A DNA stretch of 64,000 bases from Escherichia coli (GTDB lineage Bacteria > Pseudomonadota > Gammaproteobacteria > Enterobacterales > Enterobacteriaceae), in assembly GCF_030384885.1 (NCBI RefSeq), contig NZ_CP128613.1; one strand, written 5' to 3'. Numbering within the stretch: position 1 is the stretch's first letter; every line of letters starts with the position of its first letter. A program made the position numbers and the translations under genes. This document shows, piece after piece, positions 6,947 through 49,941 of the stretch. The notes under the pieces are model-generated. The model did not search any database. It had not been told where the DNA came from and was given only the letters and a program-made list of their open reading frames with translations.

Positions 6947-7390
6947 ATGACTTATAAGCGTCCCGTTTCTATTCTGGTGGTTATTTATGCGCAAGATACG
7001 AAACGGGTGCTGATGTTACAGCGGCGTGATGATCCCGATTTCTGGCAGTCGGTAACCGGCAGTGTGGAAGAGGGGGAAACCGCGCCGCAAGCCGCCATGC
7101 GCGAAGTAAAGGAAGAGGTCACCATTGATGTTGTCGCTGAACAACTGACCTTAATTGACTGTCAGCGCACGGTGGAGTTTGAAATTTTTTCACATTTACG
7201 TCATCGCTATGCGCCGGGCGTAACGCGTAATACGGAATCTTGGTTCTGTCTTGCACTCCCGCACGAGCGCCAGATCGTTTTCACTGAACATCTGGCCTAC
7301 AAGTGGCTTGATGCGCATGCTGCGGCGGCGCTCACAAAGTCATGGAGCAACCGGCAGGCGATTGAACAGTTTGTAATTAACGCTGCCTGA
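6947..7390 (+). CDS. nudB: Dihydroneopterin triphosphate diphosphatase (Nudix)
   Basis: 147-aa ORF starting 2 nt after aspS stop; Nudix box [20 protein letters not shown]; exact start uncertain. Confidence 0.85.
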
Positions 7391-9319: not shown

Positions 9320-9412
9320 TATATCAATCCATTATTTATATATAAAACAGCATCTATCTTTCGTGATGGTAAAGCATTAGCATTGTATTATAATAATGAC
9401 AAGGAATGTTTT

Positions 9413-10237
9413 ATGCGGTTATTTATTAATGTGATAATTATAGTTTCGATCAGTCAATGCGTGAATGTATTTGCTCAAGATAATGTCATCCGCTATCCCT
9501 GGCGATATGGACGTATTTCTTTAAATGAGAATAATGAGTTTGTGCCTCAAATTATTCATATGCGTGATGATATCTACGGCGTGGGTGAAGCTGGTGCAAG
9601 CCTTAACGATGCGAGAATGGCGCAAAGTGGTGTCGCCGTGAGGCTTAGCGTTATACAGCAGGGGCAGGTGGTGAATGCTTTACTGGATTTCTACAATAGC
9701 AATAATCAACCTGCTTATATCTTTGAAGGTGGTTTGATGCCTTGCAATAAAGCCTTTGACATCACAACAAGCAACATTGTCCTTGATGGGATGTGTGGAA
9801 TTTATGATGGGGTCGATGGCTGGCAAGTTATTCCTGCGGGTGATCATTATAAAGAATCATTTTCACTCACTCAGGCTTTTGAATTTCTGCCGGGAAAACA
9901 TCATTATAAAATTAATGCCGGAAGTTTTATCATCAGAGTCGGGGATGATATTTTTGCAAGAGAGGACGCCGAAAGCATTCTTTTTGATTTGATTAACTGG
10001 CGATATGGCTATGTGCTAAAAAGTTATGAAAGGGTGTCGAAGTGGGATTTAATGGCAGGGACTTATGTACTGCCTGAATACTCGGGGGATAAAAGAATGG
10101 ATGAGTATCGAATTTACTCAAACCAGGTGTCGATTGATCTTAATGGTGACGAGTTAGCACATACGGAGTCCTATCAGTGGCGAATTGATAGCGGAATGAT
10201 CCCGGAAAAATTCAGCGTTCAGGAACTCGCTGAATGA
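9413..10237 (+). CDS. Hypothetical secreted protein (signal peptide), unknown family; not part of the K-12 gene order as I recall it
   Basis: 274-aa ORF from ATG 9413 with AAGGAA RBS 6 nt upstream; N-terminus MRLFINVIIIVSISQCVNVFA/QD looks like a SPase I signal peptide; AT-rich codon usage; track ORF from 9188 overlaps yebB and is not the likely start. Confidence 0.6.
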   Translation: MRLFINVIIIVSISQCVNVFAQDNVIRYPWRYGRISLNENNEFVPQIIHMRDDIYGVGEAGASLNDARMAQSGVAVRLSVIQQGQVVNALLDFYNSNNQPAYIFEGGLMPCNKAFDITTSNIVLDGMCGIYDGVDGWQVIPAGDHYKESFSLTQAFEFLPGKHHYKINAGSFIIRVGDDIFAREDAESILFDLINWRYGYVLKSYERVSKWDLMAGTYVLPEYSGDKRMDEYRIYSNQVSIDLNGDELAHTESYQWRIDSGMIPEKFSVQELAE

Positions 10238-10274
10238 ATCGTCCTCTACCTGCTTGCCAGATACAGAGGCGCGG

Positions 10275-10859
10275 ATGAATTTATCAAGCGTATTCAATCA
10301 GCTTTTAATCTCATTTGCTCTTGCCGGGACGTTGATATTAAGCAGCTATCTCATGAAAGCTCACTACCCACGTTTCAGGAAGCCAATTGCGCTCTTTTAC
10401 TTCTTTTTAGCGATTTATACCAGTTATGCTGCCGTTCAGGAGTATGAGTACCACCGCAATAGCTTGACTACGCTCGCAAAAGTTTCTTCGATTCGTTATA
10501 CCAGTAATTTTAAGCGTAGCGCCTCGCACTCCTGCAATTTACTGCGGGGAGGAAGGATTGATTGCTCGGGGCTGTATGCCTATGACCTGACCTGGCAGAT
10601 TGACGGTAAGACCTGGAATTTGCATGTTGAGGACAAGCGTATAAAACCAGGAATCACCATGTGCGTGAAGGTTGTAAAAGATCGCCCCGCCATCGGGAAA
10701 CCCTGTGAAAACGTGTTTTTCAATATCAGCCCTTTGCCGATTCTGATAGCTATATGGGCAATAAGCGCATTTATATTTGCGGTCTTACTCCTTCACCAAC
10801 TAAAAAAATGCCGCGAATGGAAGCACGCCAGCAAGGAACGTGGAAAAATTGGCCATTAG
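10275..10859 (+). CDS. Hypothetical membrane protein, three predicted TM helices with Cys-rich loop, unknown family
   Basis: 194-aa ORF from ATG 10275 with GAGG RBS; 37 nt after upstream ORF stop; hydrophobic helices near N-terminus (x2) and C-terminus; basic C-terminal tail; AT-rich. Confidence 0.55.
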   Translation: MNLSSVFNQLLISFALAGTLILSSYLMKAHYPRFRKPIALFYFFLAIYTSYAAVQEYEYHRNSLTTLAKVSSIRYTSNFKRSASHSCNLLRGGRIDCSGLYAYDLTWQIDGKTWNLHVEDKRIKPGITMCVKVVKDRPAIGKPCENVFFNISPLPILIAIWAISAFIFAVLLLHQLKKCREWKHASKERGKIGH

Positions 10860-10957
10860 AAGTCAAAGAAAGAGTGCGATGTAAGGTGATTCATAGAAAA
10901 TTTCAGATACCGTGAGCCAAAGGATTATCAGTTCTGAAATGATTTAATATCATCCCT

Positions 10958-33295: not shown

Positions 33296-33637
33296 ATGAT
33301 GAAAAAAAGTATTCTGGCGTTTCTGTTACTCACCAGTTCTGCAGCGGCGCTGGCGGCACCGCAGGTGATTACCGTCAGTCGTTTTGAAGTGGGTAAAGAC
33401 AAATGGGCATTTAACCGCGAAGAGGTGATGCTGACATGCCGACCGGGCCATGCGTTGTATGTTATTAATCCGAGTACCCTCGTGCAGTATCCTTTGAACG
33501 ATATCGCACAAAAGGAAGTCGCCAGCGGGAAGACCAATGCCCAGCCCATTTCGGTGATTCAGATTGATGATCCTAACAATCCAGGTGAAAAAATGAGTCT
33601 GGCACCGTTTATAGAGCGAGCTGAAAAACTCTGTTAA
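33296..33637 (+). CDS. yebY: Uncharacterised periplasmic protein YebY
   Basis: 113-aa ORF with signal peptide; translation recognised as YebY. Confidence 0.85.
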
Positions 33638-33666
33638 TTACCTAAAATAGCCTTTTGATTTCCAAT

Positions 33667-33709
33667 AAAAAACCGCCTCAGTTCTTTCACCAGAACAGGC
33701 GGTTTTTAA
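33667..33709. terminator. Bidirectional rho-independent terminator
   Basis: aaaaaccgcctcagttctttcaccagaacaggcggttttt: GC stem flanked by A-run and T-run. Confidence 0.8.
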
Positions 33710-34010
33710 CATTTAAGCTGATGACCACCACGCTTTTTATTGACCATTTTGCACGCAAACTGGAAAACCTGGCGTCGTCATCTATTCTTAAAGGGCAAGG
33801 CAACTAAGCCTGCATTAATGCCAACTTTTAGCGCACGGCTCTCTCCCAAGAGCCATTTCCCTGGACCGAATACAGGAATCGTGTTCGGTCTCTTTTTATC
33901 TGTTAAAAGCCAGAAGCATTCCCTTCGCTGACTTTATAGTCAACCATAACACACACTCTACTGTCTGAGTCCAGCGTTTTTTAACATTCTTGTTAAGATT
34001 ATGTGATCTT
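33700..34010 (-). ncRNA. ryeA: Antisense sRNA RyeA (SraC) overlapping sdsR; boundaries approximate
   Basis: Inferred from the known antisense arrangement at the yebY-pphA locus; ends not determined from sequence. Confidence 0.35.
33795..33897 (+). ncRNA. sdsR: Small regulatory RNA SdsR (RyeB)
   Basis: Sequence gcaaggcaactaagcctgcattaatgcc...ggaccgaatacaggaatcgtgttcggtctcttttt recognised as SdsR; 3' terminator hairpin plus T-run; sigma-S-like -10 (tctattctt) just upstream. Confidence 0.75.
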
Positions 34011-34031
34011 TAGCGCGGGAGGAAAATATTG

Positions 34032-34688
34032 ATGAAACAGCCTGCGCCCGTTTATCAGAGAATTGCGGGTCATCAATGGCGACATATCTGGCTTTCAGGC
34101 GATATACACGGTTGTCTTGAGCAGTTGCGCCGCAAATTATGGCATTGTCGTTTTGAACCGTGGCGAGATTTACTTATCTCAGTGGGAGACGTTATCGATC
34201 GTGGGCCGCAAAGTTTACGTTGCCTGCAGTTACTGGAACAACATTGGGTTCGTGCGGTAAGAGGCAATCATGAACAGATGGCGATGGATGCGCTGGCATC
34301 CCAGCAGATGTCTTTGTGGTTGATGAATGGCGGCGACTGGTTTATTGCGCTGGCAGATAATCAACAGAAACAAGCGAAAACGGCGCTGGAAAAATGTCAG
34401 TATTTGCCCTTTATTCTTGAAGTACACAGTCGCACCGGCAAACATGTTATTGCCCATGCCGATTATCCGGATGATGTTTATGAATGGCAAAAGGACGTCG
34501 ATTTGCATCAGGTCTTGTGGAGCCGCTCACGATTACGTGAAGGCCAAAAAGGGCAGGGAATTACAGGTGCTGATCATTTCTGGTTTGGTCATACACCGTT
34601 GCGCCATCGCGTGGATATTGGCAACCTGCATTATATTGATACCGGTGCTGTCTTTGGGGGAGAACTGACTCTTGTGCAATTGCAATAA
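34032..34688 (+). CDS. pphA: Serine/threonine protein phosphatase 1
   Basis: ATG 34032 with GGGAGG RBS; motifs GDIHG, GDVIDRG, GNHE; translation recognised as PphA/PrpA. Confidence 0.9.
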   Translation: MKQPAPVYQRIAGHQWRHIWLSGDIHGCLEQLRRKLWHCRFEPWRDLLISVGDVIDRGPQSLRCLQLLEQHWVRAVRGNHEQMAMDALASQQMSLWLMNGGDWFIALADNQQKQAKTALEKCQYLPFILEVHSRTGKHVIAHADYPDDVYEWQKDVDLHQVLWSRSRLREGQKGQGITGADHFWFGHTPLRHRVDIGNLHYIDTGAVFGGELTLVQLQ

Positions 34689-48741: not shown

Positions 48742-49410
48742 TCCTTCCTCAATCTTGAGTAACCCCGTCGTTGAAGGGTTACTCAATTCATCCTGATTAT
48801 ACGCACTGTCATGGTGCAACTGCTTCAATTTAAAACTCTGGTCTGACTTCAAATAATTATCATATTATTTATTTGCGTAACGGGATATCAGAAAAAGATA
48901 TTTAGCCCATTAATTTATTAGGATGTTTACATCGGATTTGTGATTAAGCGTGTTATTATTTATTAGCGAAACGTTTCTCTCTTGATTTTTTTGCGCATTC
49001 ATCAATTTTTCTTATTTTAAATTTACAATACCTTTGGGGATTGACTTCTCTTTGGGGTGATTGATAGCCGTTAACTGACTGTTTTATGAGAAAAAGTGAT
49101 ATAACTTTTTATTCATTGCATAGCAGAAAATGTGATATTGCACGCACTATGTAATAACTTCTCCCATTGGCCTGGAACAACTGAACTTATTGAACTATGT
49201 TAGAAAATACGTCAGTTTAAGTATCTGCCTGAACTGGCAAGGTTAAGCACAATGATATATCGGCGCGTATTCCGTTGCATAAGTGTGCAAAAAAAGTGGA
49301 AGACGTATCGAGATTTGTGCGTCTGATCGAGACATGTTTAAAAATGGCTTGCCATAATTAACGTTGTATGTGATAACAGATTTCGGGTTAAACGAGGTAC
49401 AGTTCTGTTT

Positions 49411-49554
49411 ATGTGTGGCATTTTCAGTAAAGAAGTCCTGAGTAAACACGTTGACGTTGAATACCGCTTCTCTGCCGAGCCTTATATTGGTGCCTCATGC
49501 AGTAATGTGTCAGTTTTATCTATGTTATGCCTGCGGGCGAAGAAAACAATCTAA
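49411..49554 (+). CDS. yobF: Small protein YobF
   Basis: 47-aa [50 protein letters not shown] ending 12 nt before cspC; below the ORF-track size cutoff. Confidence 0.8.
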
Positions 49555-49566
49555 GGAATTTTTCAA

Positions 49567-49776
49567 ATGGCAAAGATTAAAGGTCAGGTTAAGTGGTTCA
49601 ACGAGTCTAAAGGTTTTGGCTTCATTACTCCGGCTGATGGCAGCAAAGACGTGTTCGTACACTTCTCCGCTATCCAGGGTAATGGCTTCAAAACTCTGGC
49701 TGAAGGTCAGAACGTTGAGTTCGAAATTCAGGACGGTCAGAAAGGTCCGGCAGCTGTTAACGTAACAGCTATCTGA
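49567..49776 (+). CDS. cspC: Cold-shock-domain protein CspC
   Basis: 69-aa ORF; RNP motifs KGFGFI and VFVHF. Confidence 0.95.
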
Positions 49777-49823
49777 TCGAATCCACTGATCTGAAGTGTG
49801 AAGACACTTCAATCTCGCTATAA

Positions 49824-49849
49824 AGCCTCGTCGAATGCGAGGCTTTTTA
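49824..49849 (+). terminator. Rho-independent terminator after cspC
   Basis: agcctcg-tcgaat-gcgaggct hairpin followed by T5. Confidence 0.8.
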
Positions 49850-49941
49850 CTTTGTTTTATCTTCGCTCCTGGCGTTCGGATATTTGCCCGCCGCGTGATT
49901 CGCGTTACACTTGCGGCCTTTAGTATCCTGCCGGAGTTGTC

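Follow-up and report, generated by a model that had tools for sequence, protein, structure and literature searches.

Organization of the locus

The region at 33665-34031 of the window, by which we mean the whole 64,000-nucleotide stretch of Escherichia coli DNA that was analyzed, holds two small-RNA genes on opposite strands, set between two protein-coding genes. Upstream is the yebY coding sequence (33296..33637, plus strand), a 113-aa ORF, and downstream is pphA, which encodes protein phosphatase 1 (34032..34688, plus strand) and has the SD sequence GGGAGG at 34017-34022. Both flanks, which a previous sequence-only reading of this DNA had named as yebY and pphA, are annotated as such in E. 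coli K-12 and in NZ_CP027579.1, a genome that is 100% identical to the window here. Gene order in NZ_CP027579.1 is yobA, copD, yebY, a gap, pphA, yebW, yebV and rsmF, and the same synteny is found in K-12. The K-12 MG1655 annotation places ryeA (b4432, 272 nt) and sdsR (b4433, 104 nt) between pphA and yebY.

Pairwise alignment of the yebY-pphA intergenic region with that of E. coli K-12 MG1655 yielded four differences in 395 columns: the A-run at 33667-33672 is one letter shorter, 33697 has A where K-12 has G, 33715 has A in place of C, and 33921 has C in place of T. All three SNPs and the single indel sit in segments belonging to RyeA only, and none falls within sdsR or either promoter. With 33640-34030 as the megablast query, 5,425 of 5,426 complete E. 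coli genomes gave a match, and in six the identity was 100%. No feature is listed at the sdsR/ryeA locus in the PGAP-annotated genomes. The lack of an annotated feature under the BLAST matches was considered as an argument against the RNAs and was rejected, as the listed genomes annotate neither RNA whereas the K-12 RefSeq record does.

An Rfam covariance scan of the whole window was performed at gathering thresholds and matched three families, and the sequence from 33400 to 34300 was inspected directly. On the plus strand, SdsR_RyeB (RF00111) matched 33798-33897 and scored 114.4 bits, its gathering threshold being 38 (E=1.8e-21; model positions 1-100 of 100). On the minus strand, SraC_RyeA (RF00101) matched 33901-33757 over the full model and scored 175.1 bits, its threshold being 37 (E=2.9e-40). 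Of the 145 RF00101 model positions, about 100 mirror SdsR, and since the second match is thus largely a mirror image of the first, we did not count it as independent evidence for RyeA. The sequence-only reading had proposed a scan for these two families and an alignment with K-12 sdsR. Both families scored above threshold and the alignment gave 100% identity, and neither of the failures it had named, a missing Rfam match or a missing terminator hairpin, was encountered. Given the Rfam E-values and the near-identity to the reference locus, a chance match is excluded.

All sequence-testable defining features of RF00111 and RF00101 were found, and nothing in the window contradicted the sdsR/ryeA reading. 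Identity, family membership, promoter motifs, structure with covariation, termini (by annotation transfer) and synteny are directly supported here. The region is almost certainly the canonical, intact sdsR/ryeA (ryeB/sraC) bidirectional small-RNA locus, functionally equivalent to that of K-12. The locus is already known, and the window's copy is ordinary, being the reference locus and not a variant of it. For annotation, the consequence is that two ncRNA genes should be labeled and a 63-aa ORF that crosses them removed.

The SdsR RNA

The sdsR (ryeB) gene occupies 33795..33897 on the plus strand and encodes a 103-nt RNA that is 100% identical to K-12 b4433; the 104-nt RefSeq version of K-12 sdsR maps to 33794-33897. 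Using primer extension and RACE, Choi et al. (2019) placed the sdsR start in K-12 1 nt further downstream than the 5' end of the older annotation, at the same position as in Salmonella, and reported RACE 3' ends at +100 to +102 (PMC6610125). When these K-12 ends are carried onto the window, +1 of sdsR falls at 33795 and the 3' ends at 33894-33896.

The MFE fold of 33795-33898 had a free energy of -34.8 kcal/mol, with z = -4.05 relative to 200 dinucleotide-shuffled sequences, and contains three stem-loops. Stem-loop 1 (33795..33813, plus strand) pairs GCA-GGC with GCC-UGC; of these six pairs, four have changed in a compensatory manner in other genera. Stem-loop 2 (33837..33854, plus strand; GGCUCU/AGAGCC) is present in the Rfam consensus structure as well as in the MFE fold. 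Stem-loop 3 (33863..33897, plus strand) is the Rho-independent terminator, with an 11-bp stem at 33863-33891, the loop AGGAAUC at 33874-33880 and the tail CUUUUU at 33892-33897; a terminator scan reported an 11-bp stem followed by CTTTTT, the same stem as in the fold. A role of the terminator loop in fepA control has been reported (PMC11979758). Between the first two stem-loops and overlapping the first is the putative target-pairing region (33808..33836, plus strand), in which seed 1 would span nt 14-32, the RNase E cut would fall at nt 31 (33825) and seed 2 would span nt 31-42 (CUUUUAGCGCAC). These seed and RNase E positions were carried over from Salmonella experiments (PMC3333887; PMC5137417). 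The region is the best-conserved stretch of the SdsR alignment described below, although conservation at 33829-33842 is partly ascertainment, as the search pattern fixed it.

The sigma-S promoter of sdsR lies at 33761..33791 on the plus strand and is identical to that of K-12. It comprises the -35 element TGGAAA at 33761-33766, a 16-bp spacer, T-14 at 33781, C-13 at 33782, the -10 element TATTCT at 33783-33788 (-12 to -7) with C-8 at 33787, and the A/T discriminator taa at 33789-33791. Frohlich et al. (2012) list T-14, C-13, TATTCT, C-8, the 16-bp spacer and the A/T discriminator as the sigma-S determinants of sdsR (PMC3333887). In vitro, sdsR is transcribed by E-sigma-S alone, and RyeA is made by E-sigma-70 (PMC6610125). 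A simple sigma-70 consensus promoter scan detected neither the sdsR nor the ryeA promoter and returned one unrelated sigma-70-like site at 33621-33648. This miss is expected, because the sdsR promoter is of the sigma-S type and the ryeA promoter combines a weak -35 with a putative TGn-extended -10; both promoters were therefore placed from the literature and from published primer sequences.

The three details that had been read from the letters alone for SdsR proved accurate. A 103-nt RNA at 33795-33897 agrees with the RF00111 match and the K-12 identity, and its first position is exactly the experimental 5' end. The 3' terminator appears as the 11-bp hairpin with CTTTTT in both the scan and the fold, and the sigma-S-type -10 quoted as "tctattctt" is at 33781-33789, within a promoter that has every published sigma-S determinant.

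The antisense RNA RyeA

The ryeA (sraC) gene encodes a 271-nt antisense RNA at 33665..33935 on the minus strand, placed by aligning K-12 b4432 (272 nt) to the window and matched by RF00101. RyeA spans the whole of sdsR and its promoter on the opposite strand and is perfectly complementary to all of SdsR. Its 5' end, AAAGUCAGCG, agrees with the RACE primer and the TSS given in PMC6610125, and its 3' ends in K-12 were reported at +261 to +270, counted from the most downstream start (PMC6610125). The RyeA fold gave z = -3.87 and ends in a terminal hairpin with a U6 tail.

The sigma-70 promoter of ryeA (33943..33951, minus strand) is identical to that of K-12. Its -10 element, TATGGT at 33948..33943, was deduced from the mutagenesis primer RyeA-p3, which changes TATGGT to CTCGAG (PMC6610125), and the start at 33935 is 7 nt downstream of it. 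The TGn at 33951..33949 that precedes TATGGT may act as an extended -10.

At the other end of the gene, a bidirectional intrinsic terminator at 33665..33707 (both strands) ends yebY on the plus strand and RyeA on the minus strand, the RyeA 3' end being taken from the K-12 annotation. Read from the sequence and the RyeA fold, it consists of a hairpin at 33673-33702 flanked by A6 at 33667-33672 and T5 at 33703-33707. Two of the differences from K-12 fall within it: the A-run is shorter by one, and 33697 is A and not G, which turns a U-G pair into U-A. The terminator scan did not detect this yebY/ryeA terminator, because its stem has a 2-nt bulge, and it was confirmed from the RyeA fold instead. 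Thus ryeA has its own promoter, start and terminator opposite sdsR, identical or nearly identical to the experimentally mapped K-12 elements.

The antisense RyeA/SraC expected on the minus strand was borne out by the RF00101 match and by the K-12 annotation at 33935..33665. The left boundary of the locus had been set at 33700, and this needs correction: RyeA reaches 35 nt further left, into the terminator shared with yebY. The phrase "sRNA sponge" is imprecise, as RyeA is an antisense antagonist encoded in cis to SdsR and not a trans-encoded sponge of the classical kind (PMC6610125; PMC8687705).

Conservation and covariation

To collect homologs, one genome per species was scanned for exact matches to the SdsR core pattern TAGCGCACGGCTCT-N6-AGAGCC, which gave at least 120 loci. 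The matches listed are mostly from Enterobacterales and range from Escherichia to Yersinia, Serratia, Dickeya and Sodalis. Across 114 distinct promoter-plus-RNA homologs among the matches listed, the -35 motif CTGG..AAA, C-13, T-12, A-11, C-8 and T-7 were each at least 95% conserved. Sequence beyond the sdsR overlap diverges fast in the homolog alignment.

Beyond the Enterobacterales, the matches listed include SdsR-family RNAs from five Shewanella (L027, L046, L058, L061 and L112) and one Paraglaciecola (L102). These keep the core UAGCGCACGGCUCU...AGAGCCAUU.CCCU and the terminator, and their 5' part is different. Their RF00111 scores are 62-88 bits, so they are already covered by the Rfam family.

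The structure was assessed on 85 distinct SdsR sequences among the matches listed, for which RNAalifold recovered the middle and terminator helices. With partners in register, 91.8% of cells in the three-helix structure were paired, compared with 21-45% when partners were slid by 1-3 columns. Nine pairs showed compensatory changes, and none of 500 shuffles reached any of five measures. The terminator helix was paired in 99.7% of cells, with five pairs changed on both sides and almost none broken. The middle helix was built into the search pattern, and its invariance is therefore uninformative as to covariation. Helix 1 was the least well supported, with 68% of cells paired in the MAFFT alignment, and RNAalifold did not predict stem-loop 1 on that alignment. 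A good part of the shortfall probably reflects register shifts from indels in the 5' segment; when the 85 homologs were folded singly, the 5' hairpin formed in 59 of them.

Proposed regulation and competing interpretations

For the expression pattern, Hfq and RNase dependence, targets and read-through of the window's copy we rely on experiments published for K-12 and Salmonella, which lead us to expect the following. In stationary phase the sigma-S (RpoS)-selective promoter would fire and give the ~103-nt SdsR from the plus strand, predicted to begin with a hairpin, followed by a single-stranded and conserved seed region, a second hairpin in the middle, an Hfq site rich in A and U, and the hairpin of the terminator. 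SdsR would bind Hfq and pair with trans-encoded mRNAs, leading to their repression, and an RNase E cut at nt 31 would generate a shorter variant, SdsR+31, with a second seed. During exponential growth the sigma-70 promoter would produce the ~271-nt RyeA from the minus strand. SdsR and RyeA would form a duplex sensitive to RNase III and in this way bring about each other's destruction, and transcription of ryeA, being convergent, would interfere with the sdsR promoter; mutual degradation and interference together would restrict SdsR to stationary phase. Most pphA mRNA would come from transcription that continues past the sdsR terminator.

In the published work, SdsR accumulates in stationary phase under RpoS and ppGpp (PMC3333887), binds Hfq at ~nt 27 and ~nt 65 and uses two seeds, nt 14-32 and the conserved stretch just after the RNase E cut (PMC3333887; PMC5137417). 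Its targets include ompD, crp, stpA and tolC in Salmonella (PMC5137417) and tolC, yhcB, mutS and fepA in E. coli (PMC6610125; PMC11979758). RyeA has been described as its cis-encoded antisense antagonist, or "antitoxin", acting through mutual RNase III-assisted degradation and transcriptional interference (PMC6610125; PMC8687705). Its expression has been reported from exponential phase, with levels that run opposite to those of SdsR (PMC3333887; PMC6610125). Read-through also produces an sdsR-pphA dicistron, and the sdsR promoter is the main source of pphA transcription (PMC6610125), a role of the locus that the sequence-only reading did not mention. In biological terms the locus is a classic example of an Hfq sRNA under sigma-S control that is held in check by its own antisense RNA, and it doubles as the pphA promoter.

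The same pair has also been presented as an RNA-RNA toxin-antitoxin module ("type VIII"), in which SdsR is the toxin, RyeA the antitoxin and growth arrest or death the main role. As Choi et al. (2018/2019) are represented in PMC6610125 and PMC8687705, SdsR overexpression kills through repression of yhcB and RyeA rescues the cells; the pair is listed in toxin-antitoxin reviews and databases, and RyeA is by construction complementary to the entire SdsR. The toxicity, however, was reported under ectopic overexpression in K-12 (PMC8687705). SdsR accumulates naturally and to high abundance in stationary phase, and it regulates many targets (PMC3333887; PMC5137417). Moreover, sdsR is conserved far more widely than the ryeA promoter elements (PMC3333887; Rfam matches in Shewanella and Paraglaciecola), which is the opposite of what a co-inherited addiction pair would show, and the locus belongs to the chromosomal core and is not on a mobile element. 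We therefore regard growth arrest or death as a possible but doubtful main role, and the difference from the regulatory interpretation is one of label more than of mechanism.

The regulatory interpretation gives RyeA a function of its own, and it might be asked whether sdsR is the only functional gene, with RyeA no more than non-selected antisense transcription. Frohlich et al. (2012) argued that SdsR is the primary product, on the grounds that species differ in their sraC promoter elements and in the size of the RNA (PMC3333887), in line with the quick divergence outside the sdsR overlap in our alignment, and mutation of the ryeA promoter changed few genes in RNA-seq (PMC6610125). On the other hand, inactivation of the ryeA -10 in K-12 makes SdsR appear earlier and raises pphA expression, and RyeA and SdsR promote each other's degradation (PMC6610125); the ryeA promoter, start and terminator are also conserved between the window and K-12. 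A RyeA devoid of any role is thus improbable.

The 63-aa ORF

The 63-aa ORF with a TTG start at 33740..33931 (plus strand), already called spurious in the sequence-only reading, is a chance open frame and not a gene. Transcription of sdsR was mapped to begin 55 nt downstream of this TTG, so the start codon cannot be on the sdsR transcript. The frame boundaries are kept in 2 of 121 loci among those listed, that of the window and that of the E. coli representative; in most of the other species listed, a stop interrupts the frame within the SdsR 5' region. A Pfam search of the ORF found no family, and it is annotated neither in K-12 nor in the PGAP genomes examined. That it is nevertheless a real small-protein gene to which the RNA signals are secondary or, in a weaker form, part of a dual-function transcript is extremely improbable: in most homologs the frame runs uninterrupted through the conserved SdsR core, and it reaches at least 60 aa in 27 of the 121 loci listed, but the core happens to contain no stops in that frame, and substitutions across the region track base-pairing, with compensatory changes in the helices, and not codon structure. 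The ORF was therefore rejected as a coding gene on its unconserved boundaries, its start off the mapped transcript and its lack of a Pfam family.

We would likewise give almost no credence to a dual-function RNA locus arising from translation of an E. coli-specific frame through sdsR or of another short frame on the sdsR-pphA read-through. Translation of the frame from a transcript that starts further upstream and has not been mapped, for instance by read-through of yebY, is conceivable, though unlikely.

Insertions at the locus in other genomes

The last 23 bp of sdsR (33875..33897, no strand assigned) correspond to a phage attB core, which is empty, that is uninterrupted, in the window. The attB of Salmonella phage PhiW104 is the last 23 bp of ryeB according to Balbontin (2008), as cited in PMC7380047. 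In the megablast search with 33640-34030, ~237 genomes showed partial coverage only, and a prophage junction at the sdsR 3' end was found in 228 of the 5,426 complete E. coli genomes (~4%). In E. coli EH2252 (L003, 6240-7470), a lambdoid prophage led by tyrosine integrase and excisionase genes begins right after sdsR, with ralR, recT and recE nearby. EH2252 and the window agree up to ~33904 except for two substitutions on the 3' side of the terminator stem, which implies that the phage supplies a near-identical replacement of the sdsR end. Going by Balbontin (2008), lysogens of this kind would be expected to have less ryeA and more sdsR. A "...ccgaaat" motif ~45 nt beyond sdsR is common to many other Enterobacterales loci among those listed and suggests that similar insertions occurred there. 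The recurrent use of the E. coli sdsR 3' end by prophages is the point of wider interest here and extends a phenomenon known from Salmonella, the window's own site being empty.

A different insertion is present in E. coli FDAARGOS_944 (L004, 5249-5946), where IS1A lies between yebY and ~nt 10 of sdsR. As a result, sdsR is cut off from its sigma-S promoter, and ryeA is truncated.

Other features of the window

The whole window is collinear with K-12 1,955,694 to 1,893,450 in reverse orientation, with two exceptions, an insert between yebB and ruvA and a pentapeptide-repeat gene. The first is a segment of ~1.6 kb at 9334-10949 that is absent from K-12, which has the 184-bp yobI region in its place. 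It contains two hypothetical ORFs on the plus strand (~9413-10237 and 10254-10859), and its GC content is 0.42-0.44 compared with 0.50-0.53 in the flanks. Pfam and PADLOC scans of the two predicted proteins returned no match. The insert is full-length in only 19 of the 5,426 complete E. coli genomes and is 100% identical to that of strain 2013C-4282.

The second exception, at 62457-62909 (plus strand), encodes a 150-aa pentapeptide-repeat protein (PF00805, E=3e-21) on a segment of ~450 bp that adjoins yoaH and has no K-12 counterpart. Conversely, ~125 bp of K-12 between aspS and nudB (1,948,618-1,948,742) are missing from the window at 6952/6953, and this K-12 segment may be a repetitive extragenic element. 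The third Rfam family matched in the window was the cspA thermoregulator (RF01766) at 49391-49851 (plus strand), with 135.4 bits against a threshold of 78. By K-12 collinearity this match lies over yobF-cspC, so the model picks up a cspA paralog and its leader.

Comparison with known systems

The closest known system is the K-12 locus itself. Relative to K-12 SdsR/RyeB (b4433; RF00111), the window has a 100% identical RNA and sigma-S promoter, the same strand with respect to yebY and pphA, and the same three stem-loops with terminator. The lone discrepancy is one of annotation convention, the RefSeq start at 33794 being 1 nt upstream of the mapped +1 at 33795. Likewise, K-12 RyeA/SraC (b4432; RF00101) shares with the window's RyeA the start sequence, the -10 TATGGT, the terminator hairpin held in common with yebY and the full overlap with sdsR. 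The window's RyeA differs from it in length (271 versus 272 nt, with a U6 in place of a U7 tail) and by three SNPs in RyeA-only segments, and the effects of these polymorphisms are probably negligible.

Salmonella SdsR/SraC belongs to the same RNA family and shares the sigma-S promoter logic, the seeds, the RNase E site and the 3'-terminal integration segment. It differs in that its SraC is ~35 nt longer, with the -10 box further upstream (PMC3333887), and in that ompD, the first SdsR target described and found in Salmonella, is according to the literature not present in E. coli. The CJnc190/CJnc180 pair of Campylobacter likewise has an antisense partner that antagonizes a trans-acting sRNA with the involvement of RNase III (PMC8687705). 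Its sequence and organism are unrelated, and the likeness to SdsR/RyeA is an analogy of mechanism and not membership in the same family.
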